Below are positions 4,196 to 62,295 of a stretch of DNA of 64,000 nucleotides, one piece after another. Numbering within the stretch: the stretch's first letter is position 1; each line of letters starts with the position of its first letter. Under the pieces are notes generated by a model. That model saw only the letters and a program-made list of their open reading frames with translations. It was not told the DNA's origin and ran no database searches. The stretch comes from Fistulifera solaris (taxonomy: Eukaryota). The stretch spans positions 496,001-560,000 of the forward strand of contig AP026141.1 in NCBI GenBank assembly GCA_030295235.1, read 5' to 3'. Both the position numbers and the translations under genes were made by a program.

Positions 4196-5009
4196 TTCTT
4201 ATGAATTGTAGATTGATGAGTATAACAAGTGTGTTCTTGAGAGATTGAAAGATAAACAGAATGGGAAACACTCAATCATTCGCCAAGCAACAAAAACGTG
4301 ATGAAAAAGTGCCGACGGTCATCTTGTTTCGTTCCGCAATTTTCGTGAGAATGACCGTTTCCGCACTCTAACTTCGGAGTGTACTCCGGATTGCGAGGCG
4401 TGAACGCCAGGCTTTGAGTCACGAGCCGATGTCGCATCGTGTACGCGCGCGGACGATCCGCATCTTTACGCGATGAGAATGAAGATTGAATGAAGACAAT
4501 GCGAAGCTTGTTATCGTCTCGATCCTGCCTACAATTTCAAGTAAACTCACCTTACGTGTACAGTATTAGAGATCCTCTGCGAGCCAAGAGCTGCGTGAAA
4601 GGTGAAAGTATTCGTACGGCGGAGTAATGCGATCCAGCTTCGGAAGAACTCCTCTGTCCGGCTTCTCTTCGTTCGGGGGCAATTTTTGTAAAAAGATGAA
4701 ACGTTCGAGTCAGTCCTGTCCTGGAAGCCGGAGTCTCGAAGAGTCGCGTCCCGTTACAAATTACGATCGTATGCCGAATTCGGGAAATAGAGTCTCCTGA
4801 ATGACCTCGCGGTCCTCGCAAACTTGATAAAATCACTACAAAAAAGATGAGGCAAACGGAACAAGTGATCCTTTCGATAACGTTGGTGTCCCTCACAAGA
4901 TGATGTGGCACCGAATCCGGTCAAACGAGAGGAATATAAAGCCGTGTCGACATTTGAACCGCGTTCATTCATTCTCTGCTCCTCAAAAGCAGATCAGGAG
5001 AGCTCATAA

Positions 5010-6468
<1,459 letters not shown>

Positions 6469-6786
6469 AATGCTGCTCGCAGGACGACTCATGCCGGCAC
6501 TATGATTAGTGCCTTTGTCTTAGAACTTAACAAAACAAGAATTAGAATGAACAACTGAAGTATGCTTGGCTCGTAGGCTAAGATCTTCCGATTTATTATT
6601 ATTATTATTTGTAGTTGATCGAGTCATGCCCGTGACTAACACTTGACACGTCACGCGATCGCGATAGACGTCTTTTATTTTCTTTTTCTGCTGCGTAAAC
6701 AGAACTCTCGTTGTTGTCATTATTACTACGTACTTTACAACAAAGCACTCATAGCCTTTTCATTCTTATTTCATTCTCATTGTATC

Positions 6787-8319: not shown

Positions 8320-8600
8320 AGACGTACGGGTGAAGGCGGTACTAACTTGAAAGAACTGCTGCTTACATGCCTGCACATGGGCAGGTTCTGCTCACCCGCG
8401 GGGAGTCCTGCTTAGCAGAAGTTTTCCTTGATTTTAAAGTCTAGGATATTAATAGAACCCTTCCAAGGTTATCGACCTTTACCTACAAAACCATCATTCT
8501 TGTAAGTGGTTCATATGTAATATTTATAGCGAGTTACCTCCGTGCAGATAATATACAAGTGACAAAGCCTCCGATCTTCGAACAAATCTCCCAGTCATGT

Positions 8601-8966
8601 TTATCGATTCAAATGTTCCTTGTACGCACGAATCCTTTCGGCTGCCAGTTCATGATACCGAGCTCGCGTCGCCAAAGGGAGAGCATTCCATTCCTTCAGT
8701 CCACCGACTTGATGTTCTAGTCGAAACATCTTGTAACCCGACACGGAACTGCGACGATGTGCTTTGAAGTCAACTTCTTGTTGACTCGCTTCTCGTAGCA
8801 ACTGTGCGAAAATGAACTGCTGTCGCTTGAGCAGATCATGAATGCATTCGTGCGAATATGATGGCGGACGCTTGTTCGAGCTAGCCTTTGTCGAATCGCA
8901 ATGATGATTCATCAGATGACTCACATCATCTTGGTTGTGATGGTCTTTGTCGTTCATTTGGTGCAT
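8601..8966 (-). CDS. Small HMG-box-like protein
   Basis: The C-terminal RRSSVSGYKMFRLE...KEWNALPLATRARYHELAAERIRAYKE resembles a compact HMG box. Confidence 0.55.
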   Translation of the reverse strand: MHQMNDKDHHNQDDVSHLMNHHCDSTKASSNKRPPSYSHECIHDLLKRQQFIFAQLLREASQQEVDFKAHRRSSVSGYKMFRLEHQVGGLKEWNALPLATRARYHELAAERIRAYKEHLNR

Positions 8967-9626
8967 GATTTATGGCCTCGTGATCAAGTATCATGCGAAT
9001 GATTTTCTGTGCAGGATCCGTTGAGACGACGAAGCTGTATGAACTCCCTATTCAAAAAAAAAAAAAATGAAATAAAAACATGAACGAATGAAGCGAGAAA
9101 ATTACGAACGAGTGAGAGAAGCTGGATCGTTGGCCAACACGACAACAAGTTTTCATGTGAATTGTCTCCCTCGAAATCACTTTCACATTCCATGATAGTG
9201 AAAAGTAGACGATTGATGGCTCTTTTTCCTTTTTCTTGATCGCTGTCAATAATCGTTATGTCAGTACAATCTTAGTTTAGTCCAATTGATTCGTGATTTG
9301 AAAAGTAAACAGTAAGACATTTCTGGAATCAATGAGCAGTTAAGTGGAAAACAACATATACATCTTAGGCAATTGTCTTACTACGTACTTCAACACTCGA
9401 TAGTATTGGGGAAACAAAGAAGAACAATAAATGAAGCGTTGAGTCTTGGTTCTTTGAGCTTATGAAAGCCAATCAAATTGCGTTGATGGTCGCTCCGTCG
9501 ACAGCTTTTCTCTGAAGACGGACTCAAGCGGTATTGAATATTTTTCGCACGCAAACGCAAGAAACGCAGCATCGCGCATCGCGCCTTTGGTTGTGCGACA
9601 AGGGGGTATTTTTCCTTACCATTACC

Positions 9627-11345
9627 ATGCATTCCTTATCGCGTCGAATACGTGCCTTTTCTTACTATTATTATTTGTCGAAACGCTACCATGCTTCCGA
9701 AGTGAGACAAGAAGCCTTTTACGCATCATTGCGACGGGGCGATCTTTCCCCGTCACTTTTTCAATGGATGCAACACGAAAGCAAGGTGACATGGAATCGC
9801 TTCGCCGGTGAAAATGCTCCTTTCATTCCTGTAATTGCAAGTGAACTACCCGAGATCGGACCTGCAGGAAAATTCTACTATTATTGGCACGATGACTCCT
9901 ATTTTCGGCGGCCCGTTCTCAGCGGCGAGCCGCAACGTTTGTGCCCCGCCGATCCGAATCTTGTACATATGGCAATTTCTCCCGACGAAACACAATTGGC
10001 CCGAGTCTTTCGAAATGGATCCGTCTTAATCAACTCGAAAAAACAACACTGGAACGCACGTGCTGTCGAATTCGGGCCATCCAATTCGTTGTATTGGATT
10101 GCGCAGGACGGAACCGTTTGGAGATCGATTTCTAACGCGCCAGCAGAGTCTATCTATCACGGACCGTCACATCCCGCCATGTCGTTGCGTCGGTCCAAGG
10201 GCGGTTCCTCTATGCTGTTAGAAAACAAAAAAACAACATGGATTTGGGAACATAGGGAAGACGGCACCATTTCCGAGCAGATATATGATACTCTGCTCGT
10301 GGACGTTCACCGGGATGGTCAAATTGTTTCGCTACAATCAACATCAAATAATGACGCAGAATGGAGCATATACGAAATGGACCTGTTTGTCGATCATGTA
10401 GTGACCTATCAACGCTCCCGCCAGGAAGAGCGGTATCGATTTGTGATTCAATCCTCCGACGGCCAAATGTTTCTTTCAGATGAAACAATAATTGATCCAT
10501 TCAGCAAGCTCACACCTTCTGGAAATATGCATTATGATACGGATATTCTACGCTATTGTCTGGAAAAGCCGTATCAACCACGAGCGACGTACGAATTCAA
10601 CATGACGAGTCATCACTTGGAGACTTTGGCATGGAATTTCGCGCCGACCTTCCACAACATGACTGAGGAACGGATGTATGCTACCAGCCCTGATGGTACG
10701 AAAATCCCTATCACCGTCTTTTCTCGTGACAATTCAACCATACATCGCGTCTTGCTGGTCGGCTACGGCGCTTACGGAAAATCGGCCAAGTGGTCTTACG
10801 ATCCCCTGTTTCATTACCTTTTGAACCAAGGTGTGGTGGTAGCCTACGCGAATATTCGTAACGACAAAATCTCTGGTATCAAGGATTACATTGCTTGTGC
10901 GGAGTGCCTGCAGTCGTATGGGAATGTGACAGCTTACGGTGTCTCAGCGGGTGGTGTGGTGGTAGGGGCCTCGTTGCAACAAGCACCCCACGTGTTTCAC
11001 AGCGGTATTTTGGTAAATGCTTTTTTGGATGTGGAAGCCACGTTGCGAAATCCTGACTTGTATTTGACAAAAGAAGATTGGGAAGAATACGGCAACCCGG
11101 AACTGGATCCTTCGATTGCATCCTATTGTCCGGTGCGAAATGTTTCACCGGGTGGTCCTCCTGTACTCGTGTTGGCCACCTTGGACGATGAGCGCGTTCC
11201 CTACTGGAATGCCCGCATCTACACCCACAAACGGGGCACGGAAAGCACCCATTTGTACATGGAGCCGAGCGGGTGTCACACTTGGAATTGCGACCGTCAG
11301 CGAATGATGGCATTACAGGCCTCCTTTGTCTTGCATTCTCAGTAA
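9627..11345 (+). CDS. S9A serine peptidase (oligopeptidase B / prolyl oligopeptidase-like), divergent
   Basis: TSPDGTKIPIT, GYGAYG, nucleophile YGVSAGG, WEEYGNP, DDERVPYW (Asp) and PSGCH (His). The N-terminus is basic and Ser-rich, possibly a mitochondrial presequence. Confidence 0.85.
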   Translation: MHSLSRRIRAFSYYYYLSKRYHASEVRQEAFYASLRRGDLSPSLFQWMQHESKVTWNRFAGENAPFIPVIASELPEIGPAGKFYYYWHDDSYFRRPVLSGEPQRLCPADPNLVHMAISPDETQLARVFRNGSVLINSKKQHWNARAVEFGPSNSLYWIAQDGTVWRSISNAPAESIYHGPSHPAMSLRRSKGGSSMLLENKKTTWIWEHREDGTISEQIYDTLLVDVHRDGQIVSLQSTSNNDAEWSIYEMDLFVDHVVTYQRSRQEERYRFVIQSSDGQMFLSDETIIDPFSKLTPSGNMHYDTDILRYCLEKPYQPRATYEFNMTSHHLETLAWNFAPTFHNMTEERMYATSPDGTKIPITVFSRDNSTIHRVLLVGYGAYGKSAKWSYDPLFHYLLNQGVVVAYANIRNDKISGIKDYIACAECLQSYGNVTAYGVSAGGVVVGASLQQAPHVFHSGILVNAFLDVEATLRNPDLYLTKEDWEEYGNPELDPSIASYCPVRNVSPGGPPVLVLATLDDERVPYWNARIYTHKRGTESTHLYMEPSGCHTWNCDRQRMMALQASFVLHSQ

Positions 11346-45316: not shown

Positions 45317-47077
45317 ATGAAGGACGACACAGATAGCAGTGATCCGGCGGAAAAGGCGAAGAAAAAGAAAGACAAGAAGGAAAAGAAGAAGAAAGAAAAG
45401 AAAGCGAAAAAAGACAAGAAGAAAGAACACAAGAGAAAAAATCATTCATCAGAAAATGAAACACCTCTCAAACGACAGCGTTGTGAACCTGAAAGCTCGT
45501 GTACGGAAAAGAGGTGTCGACAAGGACTCATACACAACAAGAAGAAACGACAGCAGACCCACTGGCGCAATACAATCGCAACAATCCGCGTCCCCTCGCC
45601 GAGTCGTCTTCGTTGTTAAAGCCCGAAGACAAAGACACCGATCGATGTGTGACTCTATTGCTGTTTTATCAATACGTTGAACCCGTCTGGAACGAAGAAC
45701 AATACCAAGAAGCGTTGCGGACCGCTGAAACATTGGCGACTTCTCACAAACTGTCGGGTCGGATGCGGGTCGCCCGCGAAGGCTTCAATTGCACGCTCAC
45801 TTCTAAAAATAGAACCGACATGTACAACTTTTGTCAGGCGTTGCGCGATTGGAATGACGTCTTTTATAAGACCGAATTCAAATTCACGCACGACTTGCCT
45901 TCGGCACAAGCCTTTCCACAACTCAAAGTCATCCCTGTCGTGGAATTGGTGCATTACGGTTTGGAAGGACGCAAGGCTCCGCCCATTGCGCAATATTCCG
46001 GTGTACATTTAGAGCCGACGCACTATCATCAAAAATTGGCGGAACCCAATACGGTCGTCATTGATGTTCGGAATCATTACGAAGCGGTGATTGGACATTT
46101 TCAGCCACCGGCTGCAACCGAAAGTGGTGAGGCACCCAAGTACATTGATCCGAAAATGCGAAAAAGTACTGAATTCCCCGCCTGGTTGGATAATCCGGAG
46201 ACCCAGAAAGAGTTGAAGGGGAAACAAGTTCTCATGTTTTGTACAGGAGGAATTCGTTGCGAAAGGGCCTCGGCTTTGCTCAAGTACAAAATGGCCACGG
46301 ATCCAGTAGTCAAAGGTAAGTCGGGTGATGGATATGGTTTGTTCGAAGTGACTTGAAACAACTCACAATCCCTTAGATCTCGGTATCAAGGGCGTCTACC
46401 AGTTGCAGGGTGGCATTGACAAATACTTCAAAGAATTCCCCGACGGCGGGTACTGGAAAGGAAAAAATTACGTTTTCGACAAACGCTTTTCTCACGCTCC
46501 CCTTTTGAAGGAGGAACATGTACCCGAGGCCAAGCCCGACGCTCCCATTTCGTCGTGCGAATCGTGTGGCAAGCCATGGGACAAGTTTCGTGGAAAGCAA
46601 AGGTGTTATACGTGTGGAGTACCGAGTTTGGTGTGTCGAGATTGTTTAGAGAGCAAAACAAAACCACGGTGTGATTTGTGTGTAGCGCAGAACATCACGT
46701 CGAAGCGGGAATGGAGAGAGAAGGAACAGCGAGAAATTGATGAATACGAAAAGCGATCAAAAGCCAGAGGTGTCTTGCTGGCTGCGTCGCACACGGAAAA
46801 TCCAAATAACGTAACGAGACTCTTTTTGAAGAATATGTGTCGAAAGAACATGACAGATGCTATTTTATTGGATTTTCTGCCGGGAATCACACATCTAGTT
46901 TGGAAAAATCGAGCTGGAGAATTTACAGGCCAAGGTTGGGTCGAGATGGAATCGCCCGAAGCAGCTGCTGCTGCTGTTGCCAGAACGGGTGAAGTAGTTT
47001 TAGGCCGAGCGTTGCACATAAAATTTGATCCTCCAGATGGCAAGGATGTTTGGCCTCCTCCGCATAGCAAAGTCTAA
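45317..47077 (+). CDS. Rhodanese-domain protein of the TrhO/YceA/TSTD2 type with K-rich N-terminus and C-terminal RRM; frameshift at ~45510; intron 46316-46376
   Basis: LLFYQYV, GRMRVAREGFNCT, VIDVRNHYE, MFCTGGIRCERAS, VYQLQGGI, WKGKNYVFDKR, a Cys cluster, and RRM-like RLFLKNM...GQGWVEM. Confidence 0.88.
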
Positions 47078-47141
47078 TCTACGTAAGAGACGGAATGACT
47101 ACTGATGATAAGATGCTAGCATCCAGCACTAGTTTCCGCTA

Positions 47142-50100
47142 TCAAACAAGATTGCCTTGTGAATCCGACTGTGTACTGCTGGTGGTGTCGATGCTACTTG
47201 TATCGTAGGAGAGAAGACGGGTAGCAGGAGCTCCAATCCACACACTGTCGGACTCGATAACCTCTCCCGTCATGGCGAGACCCTTCTCAAGAATCATGGA
47301 ATTATCTTCCATGCAGACACCTTGTTGAATTCGTGACCTCGAACGAAGTGTAACATTATTGCCCATTACGATCTTCGATAGCTCGAAGTTTCCTCGAGTA
47401 TTCAAGTGACAAACAATCGAGGCACAGTCGATAACGCAGCGGTCTCCCATCTCAACAAGATCCGGCTCGGGCATGTAAGGATCGCCGCCTGCAGGGTACA
47501 AACAACAATCGCGGCCTGCTTTCAGTCCGAGAGCCCGGAAGAAAAAGGTCATCAACGGCGAACCCGAAAATAGATCCATGATGTTCATCCGCCCATTGTG
47601 TCGCACAGTCGATATGATTTGATACAACTCCCAGCGTTGGCCGTAGCTGCAAGTATCGTAGTTATAGCGCCCTTCCTCTCTTTGCCCCATGAGCCCCCAC
47701 TTTGACGACACCTCAACGGCAAACCATATCAGGACACTGAAAAAATGAGTGAACACAAAAGCGATCAAAACTACCAGATACATCGAGGACGAGGAAATTT
47801 CAGCTCCTGAGTAATCACGTTCGATCAAGCTCCATCCGAAGAAGTAGCCAGCCGCCAACTGAGTTGCCACCAGTATGGGCCTGTGTAGAAGGTCATGACA
47901 GTGAGTCTAAAGCTTATTGGCAAAGAGAAGTGTAACTCTCGAACGAAATGATACTTACATGGTGTGGAGAGCGGCATTCGCAACACGGGTTACGATTGTG
48001 AACAAAATTATCATCCAGGTCGGCCAAACGCAGTAAGGGGCTTCGTTGTTGTAGACCGCTCTCCCAAATGGGCGCAATGTTGTCTCATCTCCATGAAACT
48101 GTAATGTACTCGGTTTCACGTCACATGAGTTGACCACATGACTTGACGCTTCTAGTCCTTTTTCGAGAAGGACAGGTTCGCCACATCGTGAGCCGAACCA
48201 TACACTCTGTTCCGGTAAATATCGCCCAGCCGGACAAACAGAGTTTGACCCAAGTACTGCATTTTTTCCTATAATGCCGCCGGGTAGAACAACCGTGTTG
48301 TCAGAAACATTCGCTCCGGCGCAAAGGACTATTTTCTCGCACGAGTCTGTTGTTGTACTTAGAAGACAAGATCGTGATCCAAACACAACGTCATCCCCTA
48401 TTTCAAGTAGATCGAACTCCCCCGTGAAAATCGGCTGATGACCAGGCCAGAAGACACGTTTCCCTATCTTTGCCCCGAGTAAGCGGTAAAGGATGCTAAC
48501 TAATTCGTAGTGTCGTCCCAAAATTTCAGTGCAGTCCTGCATACTCTCTCGTGTGAAAATGTTCGCCGCAAGATGATGACGAACCACTTCCCATTCAGAG
48601 GTAGGATCTCGTGGACCTGGCCTGAATTTTCCAATGATGAATCTTTTGACCAAAATGGCGCATATCATGTAGACAAGAGGGGCGACAATAGCGCGAACGA
48701 CTCGAATTCCGATGAAAAAGGTATTCTTCTAACATCACAGAGCCATTCCATCAAATCATTCATCGTATCGAAGGGCTCATCGTGATGCCAAGGCATGGTA
48801 ATCATCCAGTACAAGATGGCGAAAGCCGGGATATGCGAAATGGTGGTGACAAAGAATTTGATGGGCCATATTAGAAAGATTTGAGAAGTCAAATAAGGTT
48901 CAGGAAGAGCCTCTCGGTTGTATCGCAGGTTGTCAGAATCAGGCGAAGCGCTTATTTCATAGCTCGAAGTAGCTGGACCTAGATGTCTCCCGTCTGGTAC
49001 CTCTGTATTAGGGGCTACAACGGATCTTATGCCGACGCTGGCTTGGTTTCCGACCCGCACAGGACCGAGTATCACGCAACCATTATCGACGCCGAAAGCC
49101 CGAACAGTCGAGTATTCGATGGCCGCTTCGTCTCCGATTGTTACTAAGTCGTATTCAGCTACATCGGCAGCAGAACTGATTCTCGCGTTCTTTCCGATCT
49201 TTGCTCCGAGAGCACGGTAGTAAAAGTTGAGCATCGCCGCATTAGATCCCCAAATACCGCGGCCGATCATCTTTCTGAAGATTTCTACTATCCACCAACG
49301 AAGATAATATGATCCCCAGATACCATATCTGCCCGCCTTGTACCTGCCGATGATTGACCACTTGATTAGAACAAAGATCCATGGTGTAACTGTCACCCAG
49401 AAGAAATGAAAGAACACTAGAGTAAAGATGATCTTGTACAAATTGCGTTCACCGGGTACAAATAGAAGTATCCAGAGGAGACAACGAAAGAAGAGGAAAA
49501 ATCTTGTCAAGTACCAAACGGGGTACAGTACCGTGATCGGAAGTAGTTGAAATGATGCAGAGAAGAAAGTGTTGCTTGGTTCTATACGGCTTGGATCGAA
49601 GGAAGCACGTGAAAGATTGAGGTCCTTTGAAAACTGCGAAGAAGCAGCAATAGACGCAGGGTCTGTTGTTGACCGTGACTGCGGGTTTGTTATTGCCTCT
49701 CCCCGGCGTTCACGGATTACGTCCGAAATAGTAAGGCAGGTCGGATGATGGAAGACTTCGGCTCCGCCGAAAGGAATGTCGTACATTTTTCGGATTCGAC
49801 TTGCCAGCTGCGACGCCAGCATTGAACTCCCCCCTGTATTGAAAAAAATTGGAGTCTGGTGCAGGCAAGCAGTCTAAGTCAAGCAACATCTGAAATAGTT
49901 CTTGTAACTCTGAGACCAATGAATCAGTCGGGCCATGCCCCGAGTTGGATTCTTCTTGCAAGATGGAAACAATTGCATCAGATGGCTGTGGGGGATTTAG
50001 CTCTGCGGATGCAACGGGTTCATTCAGTTTACACACATGGCTCGGTACGGCATAGCCATCGATCAGGTCCTGCGCAACACGGACAACTGTCGGTGGGTCC

Positions 50101-52058
50101 AGATTGTATACATGTGCTACCAATGCTCCGTATTTTGTCGGGTGTGGAACAACAACAAGATCCTGATGTTCGCCCTTTAGCAGCGCATCTCGAAGTGTCT
50201 GTTGCACGTCTTGCGCATTGACTGAAACTTGTGCACAGGGTATCGCGACAAGAACAGATGTGCCTAATGGTGGACAGGTGGCCTTAAAGGTTCGCTCGAT
50301 AGGAAGCATTGAATCGTGCAGCTCGGGCAGACTTAATCGCTGTCCTAGTTTGACCCGGAGAATCTTGTTTGTATGCGATTTTGGAAGGGTGTCCATGTAG
50401 ACTACACACTGCGGCCACTTGGGCGCCGCAAGACGACCATCTCCCAAGTATTTGTGTAGAGCGGGAAGATCCAAACGGGGTTTGTTTGGGTATGGTACCA
50501 TTACCAGTCCAACAACCTCTTGTAACAGGGAATGCTTTGCCGAGAATGCGACACAAGCGGCCACTAACGGGTGCCCATTAATAGCTTCTTCGACTTCTAT
50601 GGGACTAATGATTTCGCCGCCGCGATTGATGACTTCTTTCGCCCGTCCTGTGATGTAAAGGTATCCGTCAGCATCCATATATCCTAAGTCTCCGGTATTG
50701 AACCAACCCCCTGGAAGGAAGGATACAATTTTCTCCGAAGGACACGATTGCAAAGCCCCGTATCCGCGAAAGAGTGGTTCGGACCGCACACAAATTGGGC
50801 CTTCTTTTCCAGCTGCAAGAGGCCTTTGAGTCTTTAAATCCAAAATAGCAAGCTCAGGACCTACAGCTACTCCACTAGTTCCTGGTTTTTCGAGTTGGTA
50901 ATCCGCTGGAGGTGATGTAATCGGCATACATTCTGTCATGCCGTACGACGGCAACACATTTGCACCGAACGCATTCCTGAGCTGTCGCGCCAGTGATGGC
51001 AATAGTCCACCAGCCGCATTGGCGATCATTCGAAGCTTCTTAGGCGACACGGCTCCATCAACAAGATAGCCCTCTGTTACTCCGGTTTGTAAGATTAGCT
51101 GATGCATAGTCGGAGCAGCATAGTACCACGTAAAAGACGGCGCGCCATCCTGGAGAAGTATCTGCCAAAAAAGACCAGGATCGAAGGAAGGACAGCAAAT
51201 CACGCATCCACCTGAAAAGATGGGAGAAAACACTTGTCGAATAATGCCGCCCACGTGGAATAAAGGCATCAGGTTGCAGTTCGTATCGTGCGGCGTCAAC
51301 TTCCATGAGAGCGAGATGCAAGTCGTTGCAACAACAACATCCGCCAGTAGATGGGGAACAAGCTTTTTAGAACCCGTAGTTCCTGACGTAAAGAGAATTA
51401 GTACTTCATCATTGTGCTGATTCGCTTGAAATCGTTTGTCCGAATCGTAATCGTACTCTCTTGCTTGTAGACCAAACTTATCTTTGCATCGATGTGGCGG
51501 CCCTGATAATCGACATGATGGCGCCTCCAGTCGGAACAAACCTGCCCACTTGGTATCTGGAAATAATCCTATAAATGGAATTTTTAGCTTTTCTGAAAGC
51601 TTTTGCGAAAGATCACTTTCTCGCAATCCTATTATGAGATCAGCCCCAGAAGTGAACAGATCGGCTTCAAGCTCTTGTTCGGCACCAAAGGCATTCAGCG
51701 GCACGCAGCTCGCCCAGGTCGACGTCACAAGAATCGCGAGTGCTAGTTCTGGTCCGTTCGGCAAAACGACAGCGATTCGATGACCTCGACCTACACCAAG
51801 ACTTTTGAAGACATTTCCACTTGTTGTGATGCATTCATTGATTTGGTCAGTTGTAATCGGTTTTCGCCCATCAGTCGAGGCGAGCGCAGGCTTGTGCACT
51901 CCGAGCGGCAGCGCTGATAGTAAGTCGGGAAAATGAGGAAGTATTTCCTGAGCAACTTGTCGGCCCGATATGCTTCCATTAGGTTGCAACAAGTGCTGTG
52001 ACTTCTGAATCAGTGGGGCGACAGTCAACTCGGCGTCTTTTGTATCGAAAGATTTCAT
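47142..52058 (-). CDS. NRPS-like enzyme with Pls (poly-lysine synthetase)-type architecture: adenylation - thiolation - 3x (TM + beta-helix-like) terminal domain
   Basis: A domain: FTSGTTGSKK, SYGMTEC, FNTGDLG, GRAKEVINRGG, PKSHTNK. T domain: DSNFFNTGGSSMLA after correcting a homopolymer at ~49845. Three repeats of KW..IG...G.Y / R.LG.K.G / DL..IGD. Second indel at ~48717; intron 47881-47958. Confidence 0.88.
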
Positions 52059-52675
52059 TCTGATTTGATGTAAGTTGCTTCTCACTTTGAGATCTCTCTG
52101 TTGTGTATGTGTGGGTACAAGATGAAGATTTCGTTGTTTCAAGAAGACAAAAACAAAAAGTGTGCGCAAGGCGTTGTTTTGCATGAACGCGTGAAAGGTG
52201 GATCGACGGGCTCCGCCTTCTGGGAATATTTCCGTTGCGAGCAAATCACCTATGTATTTTGTGTACAATTGTTACTACCTTAAATTTTATTTAGCAGCGA
52301 ACCGAAACTTTACATGACGTAGCTCTAAGTATTTTTTGGTACGCAATACAAAACGGAAAAGTTGTCAACGTGGTTTCTGATTTCTGACCAAAGTGTACTG
52401 AAACCATGCTTTCCATTATGTCTTACCGCTTACCGCAATTGTGACATAAACGGAATAACTTCCACGGTGGATGGACAGACCAATAGCTAAGTCTCTAGTA
52501 CTGTAGATCAGGACTAGGTAGGCAGGGAGCAGAAAGATGAAAGGGTAAGGGCAAGCAAGAGTTGCTGACTATCGAAAGCAGTCTAGGTCTATAAGAAGAG
52601 GGAACCCGCATAACCTTACAACCAAAATGATTATCACAAGAATACTTGTAGCTAAACATTCTATCATTAGACTGT

Positions 52676-53954
52676 TTATAAGTTCTTCTGCTTCAAAATC
52701 GTAATTCGGTTCATCAATAAATCAAAATCAATATGCGGTTCATAATGATGTATTGCTGCATCCACGCGATGCCTGTCTTCGGCATTTAGCTTTGCTGTAT
52801 AACCATACATGAGCTCGAGAGACTCATCAGTTTGAAAGGGTGTTATCAGAACGGGAGGAGCATTCGGCATGGTGGTGACAAAATCGGTGAGCTGATCCGA
52901 TAGTGGATAATCTGCACATCCCGTCATGAGAAGCGATGCTTGCCATCGCGGCGAGTGCTCATAATTTTGCTGTGCTTCCATGAGGAATCCTAGCAAGATA
53001 TCATTGCGAGAAGCGTGACATACAAACAGTGTCCGGCGCTGATGTCCATCGTCTATCACGGCTCGCTGATGTCGTAGCTCTTGCAAGAAGGACTCCAACG
53101 AATCAGCAACTAACTGAAGGTCTCTCCGCACACGATAATGACGAAGAGAATGCTCTCGACCTGTTAACAAATTGCCTTTCAAGAGCACTTCCAATTCCGA
53201 CAAAGCGGGGCATCCGAGAAACTGTTTGTCGGGAACAGCCCCCAGAACCGGTATATCGGGCCACTTTCGCTGCATGGCTAGCTTAAAATAGTGCATCGTT
53301 TGATCAAATTTGTCCGGCTGTACTTGATTGACAATGACCCCGGCCACAGGGACATTGTGCACTTCACAGAGCGTTAAATTCAGAGTCAACTCGTCAATAC
53401 TGCGCCCCAAACCGCCGTTGACGACCAATACCATGGGAGATCCCAGCCACGCTGCAATGTCGGCGTTACTCGCATCGACAATACTACCGACCGCGCAGTT
53501 TCCCGTTCCTTCACAAAGAATCAGTTCCGATCGCGAGGCAATATCGTTGTAGGCCTCTTTCAGTTTTTTCCTTTTGCACATCGAGCGTGATTTTGTTGTC
53601 GAGATAGTCCCTTGTATAGCCCGGAGGTATAATCACCGGACTTACACTTCTCCATGGCACATGGTCCATCTGAAAATGCTCCTTAAAAAGCACGGCGTCC
53701 TTGTCGACGGCCACATCGATGCCATGTTCATGAATCACCGTACTCTTTTCGCCAATGGGTTTGATGAATCCCACTTTATTGAATTTCTTTTGCAATCCGG
53801 ACATGAGAGCCAAGCTAACGGTAGTCTTTCCAGCGTGTTGTCGAGTGGCAGCGACATAAAAGGAGGGTACAACATCATCGACATTATTACTCGATAATGG
53901 CCGATGTTGAGTTCGCTTCTTCAGCAATAATGAGAGCCTCGAAGAATATCTCAT
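52676..53954 (-). CDS. BioD-like P-loop (AAA_26) plus DRTGG-like protein, resembling the N-terminal region of phosphate acetyltransferase; frameshift at ~53566
   Basis: YVAATRQHAGKTT, GFIKPIG, ILCEGTG..VGS, GGLGRSIDEL and GVIVN; basic presequence; no Pta catalytic domain. Confidence 0.8.
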
Positions 53955-54242
53955 TCCAAAAAGCAGCCTTATTCTCGAATGTGGTGAGGAAACACGAAAG
54001 AAGGTATTTTGTTGTGGATGTGAAATGCCAATGGCTGACACGACGCAAATTCGTTTTTGTTTTGCGAGAAAGAGAGGCGACGAGAAAGTGCAAAAAGTGC
54101 CGAAAGGAACGGTCCGATTGCAGTCACGTACGGTCGTGAATGAACCTCATCGGCAAAAAAAAAGACGACGAGAGAGACTGCCTTATTTTACAAGAATAAA
54201 TATTATGATTACAATACATTTACAGAACTACTTTCAATCCGT

Positions 54243-55555
54243 TTAGTGCAAGGCATCACGAACTTGGTAAAGCACCTTCAAAACATCAAAAACGGAAATG
54301 CGCTTCATAAAGTCCTGCTCCCAACACGCTTTCATCAAGTGAATAAGCGCATCTTCTACCGTCGAGCGATTGTAAAAGAGGGGTCAATGTACGGTCGTTT
54401 CATGCCTTTTCCAATCAGTTCGTACAATCGCTCATCTTTTCCATCGTACTCGTAGTGCGGCCACATTCCCGTCAACAACATGTAATAATTGTTCCCCAAG
54501 GAATACGTATCTGACGCCTCGTTGCCGTCTTCGCAACGTAGATCTTCCGGTGCACGATAGGATCCGTCATAACAGCGCTCTGTTAAGCAATAGTCATTGC
54601 CATCCCACGTGAAGATGTGACCCTTGTTGAAATCGTTAAGCTTGATGTCCTTTCCGGAACGAAACCATTGAGGTGAATGAAAATCTCCGTGCATCATGGC
54701 ACCACCCACATATCCTTGCAGTTCGGCTAACGCTTCCGAGAATTGTATTGCCATGTCGAGCTTTTGATCCAAGGTAAGACTATTCTGACAGACCGTTTTG
54801 TCGAAGCTTTCATCGTCGGGGTCTTTGGAATCACCACCCAGTAAATCCGAAAGCACAGTATCTTCCAAACTCTCCGTCATGACCGAGCTTCCACAGTATC
54901 CATAAATATTTGCAATCCGGTTCGATGCTGTCAATGCCTCCATAATGTTAGCATCGGTGAGAGTCAACGTGAACGTTTTCGCATCAAATCGACGTCGAGG
55001 ATTGGAAAGAATGGTCGTTTTGCAAACAACATTCTCCTTGTGTAATAGCCACGCGCTGCGGTACGTTCCTCTTCCCAAGTATTCGAGTCCCCCCTGATAC
55101 AGCTCGATGTCCATGGCAATCTCATGAAATGCGTGACAGGTTGAATGCATCGCCCGAGCCCAATTGGTCCTTCGACAGGAAACATCCACGTCTTGATCCG
55201 GATCATAGTAGTCGTCCATATCTTCGTCGTCGATGGACTTTAAAAACTTTCTCCGCCATTTCGAATAGTCATCAGTTTCACGTATAGGGACTTCCGTGTG
55301 ATTGCCGGAAACATAAAAGACAGTCTGGTAGCTCTCTCTGGAACGCATCGTTGTCTCATATTGGCGAAACGTCAAGCCTCTTGGTTGACTCCATAACATC
55401 AAAGTTATTTGTAGTATCGTGGCAATGACGGTGAGAATAACCACACAGATCCGCAAAGAACGAATCGCCGGAACGCTTGGGTTCGACGCAACAGGAAAAC
55501 GATGGATTAACCTTCTTGGTGGTGCGATCCATTGCCTTTTTTGCAAAAGTGACAT
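54243..55555 (-). CDS. Secretory-pathway (type II membrane) atypical protein kinase, PKDCC/VLK-like; frameshift at ~54375
   Basis: TM anchor, LGRGTYR, VVCK, MHGDFHSPQW, KLNDFN, YRAPE and SDTYSLG; C-terminus recovered by comparison with the paralog. Confidence 0.85.
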
Positions 55556-56013
55556 TTTGGTTGATGAATGCAGCGGACGACTGAATATCAGAGTTTTCTG
55601 CAACAGATTTTACCTTCGATCACAAGTCTTGCGAGCGCATTCATTTATTTTATTTATTATCAAAAGACCTCCAGATGATAGATGATGGCTTTGCATGATA
55701 ATGAAACAACTTATAACACGAGAAAAACGGTTTTCTTGTCGTGCGAAAGACGAGACAAAAGGCGAGCGGCACGTGGTTTTACGTTAGAATAGTTATCGGA
55801 ATGACACGTGCCACGTACCGCCCCCATCATTTTGCGGACCCACATTGTACTTTAGTATAATATTCAAAGTACTGAGTACATCAACTAACATGACGTAGTA
55901 CAGTCCTGTGTGACGTATTGTTTGCCCAGCTAGGGATCAAGGGGAAATCACGTTGGGAACTTAGTCCTTGGCCCAGCTGTTCACTTCAGCTCAGACCCAT
56001 TGCTCTCAACAAC

Positions 56014-57333
56014 TTAACTCTGCGATAGACCACCTTGATCGCGAACACGGTAAAGTTCCTTTAAAACATCGAAAACGGAAATGCGCTTCATAAAGTCCTG
56101 CTCCCAACACGCTTTCATCAGAAGAATCAGCGTATCTTCTACCGTCGAGCGATTGTAAAAAGAGGGGTCAATGTACGGTCGTTTCAAACCTTTTCCAACC
56201 ATTTTGTAGAGATCTTTTCGTTCGCCTTGGTACTCATAATGCGGCCACATTCCGGTCAACAACATGTAAAAGTTGTTGCCCAAGGAGTATGTATCTGACG
56301 CCTCGTTGCCGTCTTCGCAACGTAAGTCTTCCGGTGCGCGATAAGATCCATCATAGCAACGTTCTGTTAAGCAATAGTCATTACCATCCCACGTGAAGAT
56401 ATGTCCCTTGTTAAAGTCGTTGAGTTTCATGTCCTTTCCGGAACGAAACCATTGAGGTGAATGAAAATCTCCGTGCATCATGGCACCGCCGACATATCCT
56501 TGCAGTTCGGCTAACGCTTCCGAGAACTGTATCGCCATGTCCAGTTTTTCATCCAAAGTAAGACTATTTTGACAAACCGTTTTGTCAAAGCTCTCATCGT
56601 CGGGGTCTTTGGAATCACCACCCAGTAAATCCGAAAGGACAGTGTCTTCTAAACTCTCCGTCATGACAGACGAACCACAGTACCCATAAATATCGGTTAT
56701 TCGATTTGATGCTGTCAATGCCTCCATGATATTGGCATCGGTGAGGATCTGAGTGAACCGTTTCGCATCAAATTGTAATTCCGGGTCCGCTAAAATAGAC
56801 GTTTTGTAAACTACATTCGCCGGTCGGAACCACCACGCATCGCGATACGTTCCAGTTCCCAAGTGCTCGATTTGTTGTTCAAACAAGGCTTCGTGGAAAG
56901 CAATTTCATGAAAGACGTGACACGTCGAATGCACCGTCCGAGCCCAGTTGGTGCGGCGACAACGGACGCGAACATCTTCGTCCGGATCATACTCTTCCTC
57001 CAGATCGGGATCATCGATCGATTTCATAAAGGCTTTGCGCCATGTGGCATAGTCATCACGAATGAGGATCTCGGTGAAATTATTGCCCGGTTCGTAGAAA
57101 ACAATGTTGTATCGTTCGTTCGTCCTTTTGGAAGAAGAGCGCCGCATCCACTGATACATCTGATGATCACGATGCGTCAAATCTCTCTGTTGAGTTGATT
57201 TTGTAAATCTTTGATGCAGTAGTATTGTTGATAGGATACAGAACGAAAAAATGACACCCAGTCGCAACGAGGCGGTTGAGGTTGAGACAAGATAATTCGA
57301 TGTCGGCCTAACTCGTTTTCGCACTACTGGCAT
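56014..57333 (-). CDS. Secretory-pathway atypical protein kinase, tandem paralog
   Basis: Same motifs (LGTGTYR, VVYK, HGDFHSPQW, NDFN, YRAPE); intact 439-aa ORF. Confidence 0.88.
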   Translation of the reverse strand: MPVVRKRVRPTSNYLVSTSTASLRLGVIFSFCILSTILLHQRFTKSTQQRDLTHRDHQMYQWMRRSSSKRTNERYNIVFYEPGNNFTEILIRDDYATWRKAFMKSIDDPDLEEEYDPDEDVRVRCRRTNWARTVHSTCHVFHEIAFHEALFEQQIEHLGTGTYRDAWWFRPANVVYKTSILADPELQFDAKRFTQILTDANIMEALTASNRITDIYGYCGSSVMTESLEDTVLSDLLGGDSKDPDDESFDKTVCQNSLTLDEKLDMAIQFSEALAELQGYVGGAMMHGDFHSPQWFRSGKDMKLNDFNKGHIFTWDGNDYCLTERCYDGSYRAPEDLRCEDGNEASDTYSLGNNFYMLLTGMWPHYEYQGERKDLYKMVGKGLKRPYIDPSFYNRSTVEDTLILLMKACWEQDFMKRISVFDVLKELYRVRDQGGLSQS

Positions 57334-57620
57334 GATTGTTGATTGAATATTATTCAGCGGTATCTATTGTTCTCGTTGCTCAGAATTTAAAAAGGTAGAT
57401 GGTAACAACGTAAAAATAATTACTTTCAAATGGAACGTTACGCCGTATATTACGCGCGAGATAATAAAAGCAACGACATGCTTATTGAGCGCCGACTGTA
57501 CGCTGTACGAGTTCTAGGCCGTACTTGTCACTTTTCATCATCTTTTAACTAAAATTGACGCAAATAGAGGGAACTCTTATAGCAGTAGCAGAGTGATTAG
57601 CGATTATTGTTTTTTGTTGA

Positions 57621-60600
57621 CTAAAGTATGAGTGGCTTTCGTTTCGATTGTTGCTTACTGTCTTCGCTGTATTTCCACCGACCGACGGCTTTCAAGACCT
57701 CTTCTAGAATCAAGATAGGAGCTGCCCAGCTGAGAACTGTCACCCAATTATCCAAAGAAAGAGGTACCAACCCGAAGCTCTCCCCGATCTTGGGAAAGCC
57801 AAGACTGGAACTGTATACGACAAACAGATGCAAGAGAGAAGGAACCGCGACACCGGCCAGCAACCACGGGTTACTTTGTGGTCCAACGCGAAAGAGCGAC
57901 TGGTCTACCGAAACCGCGGAGAGTGCTTTGAACATCTCCATGGTCACCAACGTTGTAAGCGATAACGTTTGTGGTAACATGCGTCCCGAACCCTGGAAGA
58001 GTTCCGTACACGTGGTGGCGCCCTGCGGACTCCAAAATTGTCCACATTGGCTCCAGGACGACAGTTCACTAAGACTGATCCCCTGAGCGAGATAATGCTG
58101 AGCAAATACTGCAATGGTCGCCAATCCGACATACATTCCGGTAATACAGTAGCGCAAAAACAACCATTTCGTCATGATGGGTTCATCGCTCGGACGAGGT
58201 GCGGCGTCCATCAAACCGGGCGCCGGTGGATTGAAGCCTAACGCGGTAGCGGGTGGACCATCGGTGACCAGGTTGACCCACAAGAGATGCATCGCCGTCA
58301 AAGGTTCCGGGAAACCAGCTAGAGTGGCAAAGAAAATGGCGCAGATTTCTCCAATGTTGCAGCTAATGAGAAAACAAATGAATGATTGCATATTGGCGTA
58401 AATACGACGTCCCTCTTCGATTGCTGTAACGATGGTAGAAAAGTTGTCATCGGCTAGAATCATGTCGGCTGCTTCTTTTGCAACTCTGAAGGTAATGATG
58501 ATTATTAGGCGATGAACGGACTTCAAGGTTACAACATCAAGAATAACTACTTACTCGGTTCCAGTTATGCCCATGGCTAATCCGATGGAAGCTTGCTGAA
58601 GAGCAGGAGCATCTGATACAATCAAAGGTTATGTCGATGAGCGAGACTTTCAGTCGAATGCGCAAAGATAGCAACGATAACACTTACCGTTTACACCTTT
58701 TATAAAGGAAACAATAGATATACGGGAACAGTGTGAGCAACAACGCAAGAGACGCATCATCCATGGTATATAGCATATCACCTACCGTCGCCTGTCATTG
58801 CTGTGATTTCACTCAGAGAAGACTGTAAATTACATAGTTAGACCCCAAACTCAATCGTCACGTCTTTCAGTTTCATGCACTTACTTGCAACATCTGAACA
58901 AGTTTCTGCTTGTCAGCCGGCTCTGCACGACAAAACACAATATTATCTTCGCTAAGAATTTTTAGCTGTTCATTTTTCGGTTTGAGAAAGAATTCACGGC
59001 CTTCAAACGCTTTAATGGGACTGCCATCATCTTCGGAAGGAAAGATATTCACATCACGCGCAATTGCCACTGCCGTATCACGCGCATCGCCGGTAATCAT
59101 GAGCACTCTGATCCCTGCGGCTGTGCACTGTCGAATACTTTCGGCGACTTCTGGTCTTGCGGGGTCTTTAATGCCGACAAAGCCGACCAAAGTTAAACCG
59201 CTCTCAATATGTTTGTAAGTTTCTGGCTTTGAAAGCAATGGATGTTTCGTTATATCGGCACCTGAGTCGTCGTTCAAATCGGATTGGAAGTTTTTTAAAC
59301 TATTTTCGAGCTGGTTCGTATCTTTCACCGCCAATGCAAGACACCGTAGTGGTCTTGCCGCCATGTCGGATAGTTTGATTTCAATAGCTCGGCGCATTTC
59401 ACCCGTCAGCTTGACGACTGTGCCGTCACGAAGCTTAACATTTGTGCACCGTTCTAGAAGCAGATTGGGAGCTCCTTTCACGTACAATCGGTTTCCGCTC
59501 AGTAGCCCCGAACGATAGTTACACAAAACGGACATGGACTTGCGGTCACGGCTAAACTCGAGTGTAGCAACACGCGGATACGATGATCTCCAGGCATCAA
59601 CATTCGCACTGGCAAGAATGCTAGGCGCAACATCGATATGAAGACCTTTGCGGTCCACCTTTCTTCCGTCACCATCTTCTAAATAATGTGACATGCCTCC
59701 TAGTTTCTCCGCCAAAACACAAAGCGCAGCTTCCGTCGGTTCCCCAACACGCTCAAATGGCTTGACATTGTCTTTATCTTTCTTTTCTTCTACCACTGCA
59801 TCATTTCCAATAATTTTGGCATCATTGCAGAGGGCACAAACTGCTGCTACATCTGCCACCGCTCCTTGCGGCTTGTTCATGACTTCTCGATCGCATTCAA
59901 TACCATCGACCATGCCGATGGGGGAGTACGAAACTCCTTGTATCATATGTTCGACGAGGAAATCACCACCTTTTTTCTTATCTGGCAATTGCTCCATCAG
60001 CACCAAACTGACGGCCGTCATCTCGTTCGTGGTGAGTGTCCCCGTCTTGTCGGTACAAATGACCGATGTACAACCCAATGTTTCCACCGCCGGCAATTTG
60101 CGAACAATGACATTGCGTTTCGCCATCCGTCGTGTCCCTAAACTGAGACACAAAGTAATCACGGCGGGAAGCCCTTCCGGAATGGCCGCGACACCCAAAG
60201 CCACCGATACTTTGGCATAATACAAAGCACCTTCCCACGTGGAGGAGAAGGTTGGATCATTCATTTTGGGAATCGACACGACCCACACTGCCAAACAAAT
60301 GATCGCAATGACGACCGTCAACGTCTGACCAAAATCATCCAATTTGATGGCCAATGGTGTTTTGGGTGCTACGGCTTCCGTAACACCTTGTTGAATTTTT
60401 CCAAATTGCGTGTAGACACCCGTTTGCACGACGACCGCTTGTCCCGATCCTCGTGTTACGACGGTCCCCGCATACAACATACCCTTTTGATCCTGTACAG
60501 GACGATTGGCTTCCGTCAATAATCCCTGATCGGCCGGATATTTGTTGACCGTCATGGATTCTCCCGTCAAACTCCCTTCATCGACGGCCAAGACGGCCGA

Positions 60601-61378
60601 TTGCAGCGAAATTAATCGGGCATCGGCCGGGATTTTGTCACCGACCCGGACTTGAATGACATCGCCCGGTACCAATTCGGCCGCGGGAATAACTGTCAAT
60701 GTCTGATCGCGTAGTACGGTCGCCAACCGGGCTTGCAATTGCTGCAGGGCCGCCAACGAATCGGCCGCTGATTGACTTTGCCAAACACCGACGGCCGCAT
60801 TCAGCACCAAGATGGCCAAAATGACCGCCGGTTCCACAAAGGATTTCCATACCGCTTCTTCTATATCGATAGAACTTTGACGAACTTCCATCCACGAAAA
60901 GAGGGCCGACAAGACGGCCACGCCCAACAAGATTTGGACCAATCGATCCGAGAATTGTTCCAAAATTACTGCGGAAAACCGGCAAAATCAGTAAACAAAC
61001 TTGAGTAGCCACCATTCTTTCACGGAACTTACATTCCCATATCGAAAGCGGAGCCGCTTGTTGCAATTCATTGACACCGTATTGTTCCAAGCGGGCTTTA
61101 GCTTCGGCGGTCGTCAAACCTGTGGTCGATGATTGTAAAATCTTCCACAATTCCGCCAAGGGCGTACTTCCTGCATCCAATGTCGTGGCATTGTATTCTT
61201 GTACGACCGGCGTAGCAACTTGTAGTTGTGTGGAAAGTTGATTATTCTTTCGAAAGCGCACACCGCCACCCCGAATCGAAACGAGACGCGGCAAGGCCAA
61301 GGCCGTCGATATATCGGATAATACAACCAAAAAGATTGCGAGATGCGCTGCGATGCCTCTCATTTTCGTGTAAGACAT
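57621..61378 (-). CDS. P2A-type (SERCA/ECA-like) Ca2+-ATPase with N-terminal signal peptide, 6 exons
   Basis: LTGES, VAAIPEGLP, phosphorylation site CTDKTGTLT, KGAP, ITGD, spliced TGDGVNDAPAL, SCNIGE and WVNLVTDG. Exons 61378-61033, 60968-58885, 58822-58786, 58696-58688, 58612-58555 and 58485-57621. Confidence 0.93.
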
Positions 61379-61479
61379 ATTAACAGAAGGTATAATAGAG
61401 GCTCTTGGAGAAATGAAATGAAAGAAGTATAGATAGCGATAGGAAAGGATACGAAGGTGTTGATGTTTTTGTGGATGCT

Positions 61480-62295
61480 TTTTTTTCTTGCGATGGACGA
61501 TTTTTTTAGGTTGGCGTTTGTTTCTGGGTACACTTTATCTGATACAGGAAAATGAGCGGCTTACTCTATGACATTCGATCCAACGATAGTTTAATTAAAC
61601 AGCAATCCAGCAAAATGTCAACTCATCGCTAACAACTTGTATGATAGCTTGTCAAGATTGATTTGGGCAGCATTGATTGTAGCGTATGGGAGCTGATTCG
61701 TTTCGGTAAATGAGATTGAAGCATTCCGGGACTGGAAGTTGAATTGAGTCATTTTTTTCTTGCGATGGACGATTTTTTTAGGTTGGCGTTTGTTTCTGGG
61801 TACACTTTATCTGATACAGGAAAATGAGCGGCTTACTCTATGACATTCGATCCAACGATAGTTTAATTAAACAGCAATCCAGCAAAATGTCAACTCATCG
61901 CTAACAACTTGTATGATAGCTTGTCAAGATTGATTTGGGCAGCATTGATTGTAGCGTATGGGAGCTGATTCGTTTCGGTAAATGAGATTGAAGCATTCCG
62001 GGACTGGAAGTTGAATTGAGTCATTTTTTTCTTGCGATGGACGATTTTTTTAGGTTGGCGTTTGTTTCTGGGTACACTTTATCTGATACAGGAAAATGAG
62101 CGGCTTACTCTATGACATTCGATCCAACGATAGTTTAATTAAACAGCAATCCAGCAAAATGTCAACTCATCGCTAACAACTTGTATGATAGCTTGTCAAG
62201 ATTGATTTGGGCAGCATTGATTGTAGCGTATGGGAGCTGATTCGTTTCGGTAAATGAGATTGAAGCATTCCGGGACTGGAAGTTGAATTGAGTCA
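61480..62295. repeat. Tandem repeat of three apparently identical 272-bp units
   Basis: CGATGGACGA recurs at 61491, 61763 and 62035; each unit ends GAATTGAGTCA; no long ORF. Confidence 0.95.

Follow-up and report, generated by a model that had tools for sequence, protein, structure and literature searches.

The minus-strand gene at positions 47142..52058 of the window, the 64,000-nt stretch of Fistulifera solaris DNA analysed here, encodes a single-module protein composed of an ANL adenylation (A) domain, a carrier domain and a Pls-type membrane C-terminal domain. The combination of a Pls-like build with an A domain for non-amino carboxylic acids points to an acidic polyester, such as polymalate, as the probable product. 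We propose, with a probability of about 0.55, that the protein is a membrane-embedded synthetase which links a hydroxy-dicarboxylic acid into a polyester. Malate is the likeliest acid, as a best guess from pocket reasoning only. To our knowledge, Pls-type enzymes are the only machines that assemble homopolymers at the membrane from monomers held on a carrier, and the well-studied ones all make cationic poly-amino acids in bacteria. In the diatom protein the same machine is joined to a domain that would activate a carboxylic acid.

Removal of one intron and correction of two homopolymer errors yields a single gene for a protein of 1,612 aa, with the ATG at 52058 and the stop at 47142-47144, as determined from open reading frames and their translations. 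These limits agree with those given in a preliminary description of the locus, made from the letters of the window, which had also named two indels for polishing. Both are present in the window, and both are homopolymer assembly errors according to contigs of X1 and X2, independent contig runs from two studies in which both sequence variants are covered. The first (49842..49848, minus strand) is a T7 run with one T too many, which should be T6 and shifts the frame within the carrier-domain motif DSNFF|NTGGSS. A letter is omitted at 49842/49845 by all spanning contigs (22.2/22.2 depth in X1, 34.5/34.5 in X2), and the NCBI-derived protein P0001 reads PDSNFFNTGGSS across this site. The second (48715..48719, minus strand) is a T5 run one T short of the expected T6 (RRIPF|F|IGIRVV). 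All spanning contigs add a letter behind 48714 (27/27 depth in X1, 57.9/57.9 in X2), and P0001 reads RRIPFFIGIRVV there. When the window pieces are joined and compared with P0001 from its residue 43 onwards, a single position among 1,366 differs, X versus F, at the second break. Introns at the two frameshift sites were also considered and ruled out, because the first break sits within the contiguous carrier motif, while at the second the sole GT...AG stretch is only 33 nt long.

That the frameshifts are real in the organism, and the gene a decayed pseudogene, is a reading for which the two breaks in the window sequence speak; the preliminary description had likewise foreseen that reads might confirm them. 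The breaks are missing, however, from every spanning contig in both runs, both studies and both sequence variants, P0001 is identical and its frame stays open at both sites, each error falls in a homopolymer run, and all pocket and catalytic residues are intact. Decay is highly improbable on these grounds, and the diatom gene is intact.

A third break, unnoticed in the preliminary description, is an in-frame TAA at 47955-47957 that terminates prokaryote-style gene calls. It lies inside a 78-nt intron (47881..47958, minus strand; GTAAGT...ACAG, phase 2, split codon AT|G). The predicted spliced junction, HTM|PILVATQ, aligns without gaps to P0003 and to the Seminavis protein P0021, and adjoining genes carry the same kind of intron. 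With splicing as predicted from the sequence, this is a nuclear, intron-containing eukaryotic (diatom) gene and not a bacterial one.

The domain order claimed initially, an A domain, a carrier domain with FFNTGGSS, and three units of two transmembrane helices followed by a beta-helix, was recovered in full on the minus strand. The A domain (50349..51893, residues ~56-570) matches Pfam AMP-binding (7.5e-48) and AMP-binding_C. Next comes a conserved alpha/beta insert of ~140 aa (49914..50336), for which a Pfam search gave no match to a known family. The insert is kept in fungal and bacterial relatives, and in the model of the homologue P0238 it is built of strands and helices (residues ~90-215, pLDDT ~63-93). 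The carrier, or thiolation, domain (49673..49895, residues ~722-795) matches Pfam PP-binding, and its phosphopantetheine serine, Ser745 in GGSS (49823-49825), is invariant in all 37 aligned family members.

The membrane part was delimited by combining hydropathy, TIGR02353 matches, found in all three downstream pieces, and the AF2 model of P0238 (pLDDT 86, pTM 0.80), which comprises six long helices and three beta-helices. Helix pair 1 (49349..49552, residues ~839-903) has hydropathy peaks at 849-867 and 873-903, corresponding to long helices 344-371 and 378-407 of the model (offset +495). The first left-handed beta-helix, C1 (48878..49345), matches TIGR02353 profile positions 15-192 (7.7e-36) and, more weakly, O-acetyltransferase models, and has beta-helix strands in the P0238 model. 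Pair 2 (48633..48874, residues ~1056-1142) peaks at 1068-1086 and 1124-1142, with model helices 561-592 and 614-647, and precedes C2 (48039..48632; TIGR02353 9.6e-15, Hexapep and Hexapep_2), the second left-handed beta-helix. The intron interrupts pair 3 (47721..48026, residues ~1347-1431), in which the hydropathy peak at 1392-1420 represents the second helix only. Its first helix stays below the hydropathy threshold of 1.5 and is placed on the basis of model helix 852-886. Five of six helices at threshold in the hydropathy scan count against the proposed synthetase, although all six long helices are present in the P0238 model. The third beta-helix, C3 (47145..47720), matches TIGR02353 profile positions 514-695 (9.5e-21) and contains the motif C-H1525-L-N1527-T-R-G, whose H, N and G are found in 37 of 37 sequences. 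His1525 (47406-47408) is a candidate for the catalytic base. All these features lie on the minus strand.

Pls/PosA enzymes (TIGR02353), namely epsilon-poly-L-lysine synthetase and delta-poly-L-ornithine synthetase, make isopeptide-linked cationic homopolymers. With the Pls-type layout as defined in the available part of PMC10522769, the diatom protein shares the A-T order followed by three membrane-helix pairs, each with one of the tandem left-handed beta-helix domains C1-C3, and the lack of both a classical C domain and a TE domain. It differs from these enzymes in its CoA-ligase type of A domain without the alpha-amino Asp and in the conserved ~140-aa insert that separates this domain from a carrier in which the Ser is present. 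With this extra domain between A and T, the protein is ~250-300 aa longer (bacterial Pls/PosA-type clusters are only ~1,324-1,406 aa), and its family is mostly eukaryotic. TIGR02353 scores are 123.7, 54 and 73.8 bits for the window pieces and 196 (P0003), 199 (P0373) and 223.9 bits (P0238) for full-length relatives. These values are under the curated cut-off of 423.1, and the protein falls outside Pls/PosA in the strict sense.

The motifs PLFHVGG and WYYAAPTMHQ, on which the initially suggested resemblance to oxalyl-/acyl-CoA ligases of the AAE3/PCS60 type was based, are both present in the A domain. Its top solved relatives are oxalyl-CoA synthetases, together with malonyl-CoA synthetases; the oxalyl-CoA synthetases among the PDB matches are 6qjz (3.5e-66, the best), AtAAE3 (5ie0, 6e-59) and yeast Pcs60 (8aff, 5.8e-49), and the best NCBIfam match is the FadD7 CoA ligase (8.5e-65). 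The absence of the Asp for the alpha-amino group was likewise confirmed: the window protein has F-H-V-G-G where five aligned amino-acid-type A domains have F-D. In PosA, Asp217 binds the alpha-amino group, according to the available part of PMC10522769. Altogether, this is a domain of the carboxylic-acid-adenylating type, as judged from alignments. A canonical cationic poly-amino-acid synthetase (for polylysine, polyornithine or similar) whose A domain has diverged would account for the overall Pls/PosA layout and the TIGR02353 matches. It would have to do so without Asp at the alpha-amino position, with an A domain matching CoA-ligase models and structures best, and with no acidic residue at the examined pocket columns that resembles Glu221 of PosA as described in the same partial source, which makes such an enzyme scarcely credible.

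The pocket residues are H268-V269-G270-G271, R274, A348-A349, G373-M374, P379 and K565, and the pocket hardly varies among family members. PLFHV.G, WY.A.PT.HQ and the catalytic Lys are common to the diatom protein and the oxalyl-CoA synthetases AAE3, LsOCS and Pcs60. The latter are stand-alone, soluble, CoA-using enzymes of ~520 aa, in contrast to the 1,612-aa window protein with its fused carrier and membrane domains. In the part of PMC8905533 available, Ser289 and His319 of AtAAE3 are described as conserved only in oxalyl-CoA synthetases. They align with Ala349 and Pro379 of the window protein; among 54 family rows, His occurs in the His319 column in none and Ser in the Ser289 column in one. 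A third pocket histidine, His216, is replaced by Gly throughout the family, and Arg274, near-invariant in the family, aligns with Ala in the oxalate enzymes. As both oxalate-specific residues are replaced, the A domain does not appear to belong to an oxalate enzyme, and Gly270, Ala348 and Gly373 lining the pocket wall suggest a larger pocket. Activation of oxalate in the manner of AAE3/Pcs60, either to oxalylate an acceptor or for detoxification at the membrane, would fit the best solved relatives and the database names of some fungal members, 'Oxalate--CoA ligase' or 'peroxisomal-coenzyme A synthetase'. These names are automatic transfers, and with all three residues exchanged throughout the family (Ser to Ala, His to Pro, His to Gly) we consider an oxalate enzyme improbable.

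According to the polyester proposal, the cytosolic A domain would adenylate a small hydroxy-dicarboxylic acid, at best guess L-malate, whose far carboxylate would be held by the conserved Arg274, a role suggested by its alignment position. The A domain would then load the acid as a thioester onto Ser745 of the carrier. With the beta-helix domains packed as a pseudo-trimer, the sole retained His (H1525 in C3) could activate a free monomer or chain end at its hydroxyl, which would attack the thioester, and the resulting polyanionic polyester may exit through or along the six-helix bundle. The logic would be that of polylysine synthesis, with ester bonds instead. A similar mechanism has already been proposed for the polymalate (PMA) synthetase of Aureobasidium, as far as the accessible text describes it.

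The PMA synthetase of Aureobasidium melanogenum (Wang et al. 2020, QHD40385.1) is known to us via citing papers. In the accessible parts of PMC11286673, PMC9210645 and PMC11905612 it is described as an A-like, a T and a C-like domain with six membrane regions, without thioesterase, encoded by a gene of 5,049 bp (~1,682 aa) and using a non-amino hydroxy acid as substrate. Parts of PMC11286673 and PMC11905612 report it as required for a homopolymer. The window protein has the same layout and size class, the match being to this partial verbal description only, while its host is a diatom. An Aureobasidium pullulans member of the family, P0373 (1,690 aa), is 33% identical to it, collinear over 1,424 columns, and carries the same pocket residues. 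With P0373 standing in for QHD40385.1, we infer that the Aureobasidium PMA synthetase probably belongs to the same family as the window protein. Counting against this link, the PMA synthetase name is on none of the matches in homology searches and the Atlas. For A. pullulans NRRL 62031, the available text places the polymalate gene in the antiSMASH 'NRPS-like' region 6.1 and reports a separate 'NAPAA' region 18.1. The P0373-type gene of this strain could be in either region, which also counts against the link.

As a rule, enzymes with a left-handed beta-helix are acyltransferases that carry out a single transfer. The acid loaded by A and T might likewise be passed on once, to an acceptor of another kind, for example a membrane lipid, secreted glycan, polyamine or protein, with no homopolymer made. 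The nearest folds agree with such an acyl transferase: in fold comparisons, the beta-helix domains of the P0238 model match maltose and galactoside O-acetyltransferases (3ect, TMt 0.52; 4isx, TMt 0.51), and serine acetyltransferase is also among the nearest. Among NCBIfam models, those for polysaccharide O-acetyltransferases (WcaF, EpsC, HpsU) come closest, and TIGR02353 scores of 196-224 bits are far under the equivalog cut-off. Neither sequence nor fold searches turned up a solved structure for the membrane domain. Against a single transfer, the entire three-fold arrangement of transmembrane helices and beta-helices is collinear with the polymerising Pls/PosA enzymes, and the likely fungal relative is, in the partial sources cited above, reported as necessary for a homopolymer. 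Genes for making an acceptor are absent beside the diatom gene; its neighbours code for a clostripain-like peptidase, a rhodanese/UPF0176 protein, a BioD-like protein, kinases and a P-type ATPase, and biosynthetic partners were not found among them. We regard the single-transfer enzyme as rather unlikely, and retain polyester synthesis as the preferred reading.

Searches for relatives returned diatom proteins of 47-87% identity, including some derived from MMETSP transcriptomes, and several diatoms have two or more copies. Eukaryotic members outside diatoms come from fungi, Mesostigma, Artemidia and an MMETSP protist, and bacterial ones from Kitasatospora and a Planctomycetota MAG. Other representatives, 30-35% identical in the A domain, lack the Pls-like end; these A-T-C-A-T NRPSs were left out. 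The FastTree tree has long branches and was used solely to choose clades for naming. Judged by homology, diatoms, fungi, a streptophyte alga, a diplonemid and two bacteria share a large, almost unstudied family. Conservation of the pocket from bacteria through fungi to diatoms suggests one common, simple metabolite as the substrate, and a polymer that may be widespread and unmeasured. So far, a slime mould and a few fungi are the only sources of polymalate-like polymers known to us. Only as a tentative extension would we suggest that a polyanionic polyester resembling polymalate is made at a membrane by diatoms and most lineages with the family.

Most Pezizomycotina carry the family, which counts against the polymalate reading given how few producers are named: in the accessible parts of the literature, Penicillium cyclopium, Physarum polycephalum and Aureobasidium only. 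Among the literature matches listed, polymalate or polymalic acid was not reported in diatoms, and literature searches for poly-L-lysine synthetase in diatoms, for TIGR02353, and for polymalic acid together with polylysine synthetase gave no matches. If the Aureobasidium link is true, the interest of the diatom gene lies in host range and not in mechanism. For diatoms, the proposal offers a concrete gene and a concrete product, acid-hydrolysable polymer-bound malate. About its role we can only speculate: such a polymer might have escaped notice as the acidic counterpart of long-chain polyamines when silica is formed, or might be a carbon polymer that the cells exude in sizeable quantity. PtNRPS1, a diatom NRPS-like enzyme in print, has the unrelated layout A-T-R1-R2.

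Four long open frames succeed one another on the minus strand between positions 47142 and 52271, and the coding product, counted from the ATG at 52058, comprises 1,612 aa. The motifs PLFHVGG, WYYAAPTMHQ, and FFNTGGSS, named in the preliminary description, were all found in translations of the window. Of the two frame changes, the first falls within a T7 run (49842-49848) inside the carrier motif DSNFF/NTGGSS, and the second within a T5 run (48715-48719). The region was compared with contigs of public runs; the gene is present in two runs, from two studies (a wetland metagenome and "organism A"), while contigs of two more runs of the second study do not span the sites. Every spanning contig from both gene-holding runs has one letter fewer at 49842/49845 and one letter more behind 48714, and these corrections are present in both of two sequence variants. 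The near-identical NCBI protein P0001 remains open across both sites and equals the joined window pieces except for a single residue at the second break. The two indels noted previously are thus present in the window, but as assembly errors.

The third break is an in-frame TAA without a frame change, located at the start of a canonical 78-nt intron (GTAAGT...ACAG, 47881-47958, minus strand) which divides a codon as AT/G. The preliminary description had missed this break, and the intron is a correction to it. Splicing is predicted from sequence and homology: the joined junction HTM/PILVATQ aligns without gaps to the full-length relative P0003 (68% identical) and to a Seminavis protein, while P0001 and P0002 (87% identical) both end at the intron TAA, in the manner of prokaryote-style gene calls. 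A short GTAAGT intron of like kind occurs in the genes adjoining the synthetase gene. Because contigs and P0001 are open at both frame changes and the third break is intronic, the gene is intact; pseudogene status, which the broken frames might suggest, is unlikely. As a separate observation, both gene-holding runs (X1 and X2) contain two versions of the gene at similar depth across 47000-52400, one identical to the window and the other differing in ~8% of bases (e.g. 49/586 letters). The second version may be P0002; divergent alleles, homeologues, and a co-occurring sister strain are all candidate explanations for the pair.

For the A-domain piece, the best 120 relatives are proteins of 1,300-1,960 aa, and all those with an organism name are from diatoms (Mayamaea, Seminavis, Nitzschia, Cylindrotheca, Pseudo-nitzschia, Epithemia, and Stephanodiscus), and the host assignment was corrected to a diatom accordingly. 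Several of them are transcriptome-derived, indicating that the family is transcribed in diatoms. Neighbouring genes within the window are ordinary eukaryotic ones and display no biosynthetic theme. In a rhodanese/UPF0176 gene (45493-47077, plus strand) and a BioD-like gene (52676-54146, minus strand), the reading frame is broken by a short GTAAGT...AG intron (46316-46376 and ~53560-53645, respectively) rather than by frameshifts. They are accompanied by two protein-kinase genes (54356-57363) and a P-type cation ATPase (57621-61534, minus strand) in three open frames, presumably exons.

The A domain (residues ~56-570) is recognized in the first frame by Pfam AMP-binding (7.5e-48) and AMP-binding_C, and the second frame begins with PP-binding, the carrier serine being Ser745. 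Frames 2, 3, and 4 each match NCBIfam TIGR02353, "Pls/PosA family" (7.7e-36, 9.6e-15, and 9.5e-21), together with hexapeptide and O-acetyltransferase families. The C-terminal part consists of three units, each of two membrane helices and a left-handed beta-helix, and a hydropathy scan detected five of the six helices; the A domain, carrier, and three repeats described at the outset were thus recovered with Pfam, TIGR02353, and hydropathy. Between the A and carrier domains lies an alpha/beta insert of ~140 aa (49914-50336, residues ~575-715), which has no match to any known family and is kept in diatom, fungal, and bacterial members, whereas Pls/PosA, as described, lack it. An AlphaFold2 model of the homologue P0238, a sequence covering the C-terminal A subdomain and everything after it, was built on a 37-sequence alignment. 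It has a mean pLDDT of 86 and a pTM of 0.80, shows six long helices and three beta-helices, and agrees with the PosA model as described in the available part of PMC10522769. Fold search with this model gave single-domain matches only (maltose, galactoside, and serine O-acetyltransferases, GlmU, A-PCP didomains, and the Pcs60 C-terminal subdomain), and for the membrane domain as a whole, neither sequence nor fold searches found a solved structure.

The closest solved relatives of the A domain are oxalyl-CoA synthetases (6qjz, 3.5e-66; AtAAE3 5ie0, 6e-59; Pcs60 8aff, 5.8e-49), followed by malonyl-CoA synthetases. In the accessible text of PMC8905533, the AtAAE3 pocket comprises Val215-His216, Cys288-Ser289, Ala313-Met314, His319, and Lys500, with Ser289 and His319 specific to oxalyl-CoA synthetases. 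The aligned window residues are Val269-Gly270, Ala348-Ala349, Gly373-Met374, Pro379, and Lys565; hence both oxalate contacts are lost and the pocket wall is built of smaller residues. The proposed likeness to AAE3/PCS60 ligases therefore holds for overall relationship but not for the oxalate-specific positions; judged by these residues, the A domain is not an oxalate enzyme, and oxalate activation is unlikely despite the close relatives. Amino-acid polymerisation, the activity that the Pls-like layout would recall, is also unlikely: FHVGG aligns to the FD of amino-acid-type A domains, so that the Asp binding the alpha-amino group is absent, as proposed previously. Nearly all family members have Arg274, a position occupied by Ala in oxalate enzymes. 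By comparison with 4-coumarate-CoA ligase structures, this residue would line the acyl pocket at its distal end, which provides a lead. Pocket columns are almost alike in all 54 rows examined, the Aureobasidium protein included, which argues for one common substrate. Separately, three NRPSs of A-T-C-A-T order (P0252, P0268, and P0240) carry an oxalyl-CoA-synthetase pocket in the first A domain (PLFHIHG, SSS, TEAAHQ), with the oxalate-contacting His and Ser both retained, and their products may begin with an oxalyl unit.

The window protein is a Pls variant. It shares the layout of Pls/PosA but departs from them in two defining features: its A domain is of another type, and full-length relatives score 196-224 bits with TIGR02353, below the cut-off of 423.1. 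It therefore does not count as a strict Pls/PosA member. The published enzyme of best fit, matched by description only, is the Aureobasidium melanogenum polymalate (PMA) synthetase QHD40385.1. According to the available parts of PMC11286673, PMC9210645, and PMC11905612, it is encoded by a 5,049-bp gene, consists of an A-like, a T, and a C-like domain with six membrane regions, lacks a thioesterase, and is proposed to load malate on the carrier and form ester bonds. Its size, as reported there, fits the window family better than the bacterial Pls/PosA clusters (~1,324-1,406 aa), and the Aureobasidium pullulans member P0373 (1,690 aa) is collinear with the window protein and 33% identical. No match in our database searches is named as polymalate synthetase, and A. 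pullulans NRRL 62031 has its polymalate gene in an "NRPS-like" region but possesses a distinct "NAPAA" region too; the link is for these reasons one that we infer, with a probability of roughly three in four. The window protein is probably a new member of this little-studied polymalate-synthetase kind.

The analysis establishes which domains are present and how they are arranged, the carrier Ser, the altered pocket, and the invariant C-H-L-N-T-R-G motif with H1525, present only in the third beta-helix domain. The substrate would be a small hydroxy-dicarboxylic acid, with L-malate as the best guess, whose far carboxylate Arg274 may hold. The three beta-helices would assemble into a pseudo-trimer in which only one site is active; there His1525 could activate the acceptor hydroxyl, and the enzyme would release its product, a polyester, at the membrane. 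The main alternative, compatible with the same A and carrier domains, is that the acid is transferred only once, to a different kind of acceptor. Apart from the corrections of host, intron, and indels, the preliminary observation is confirmed and its interpretation supported overall.

Of the best 150 matches in a family search through 1.84 billion representatives (151 sequences once an additional cluster member is counted), 58 have the Pls-like C-terminal part. Members with organism names come from a chytrid, Trametes, Ophiocordyceps, Zopfia, Hortaea, Mesostigma viride, the diplonemid Artemidia motanka, and an MMETSP protist. Searches seeded with fungal sequences show that most Pezizomycotina, and also chytrids, carry the family, under automatic names such as "acetyl-CoA synthetase-like", "Oxalate--CoA ligase", and "putative NRPS-like protein biosynthetic cluster". 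Our literature searches found no publication on the family in diatoms. A FastTree of 49 rows, whose long branches make deeper statements unsafe, groups diatom proteins in one well-supported clade and fungal proteins in another. Scanning one genome per prokaryotic species disclosed full-length relatives in two, Kitasatospora sp. and a Planctomycetota MAG, both sharing the signature motifs of the family. In the MAG sequence (L002), the member at 2444-7210 is followed by a co-oriented secretin-type gene (7393-9981) that contains four Secretin_N stretches and could serve as an outer-membrane polymer exit.
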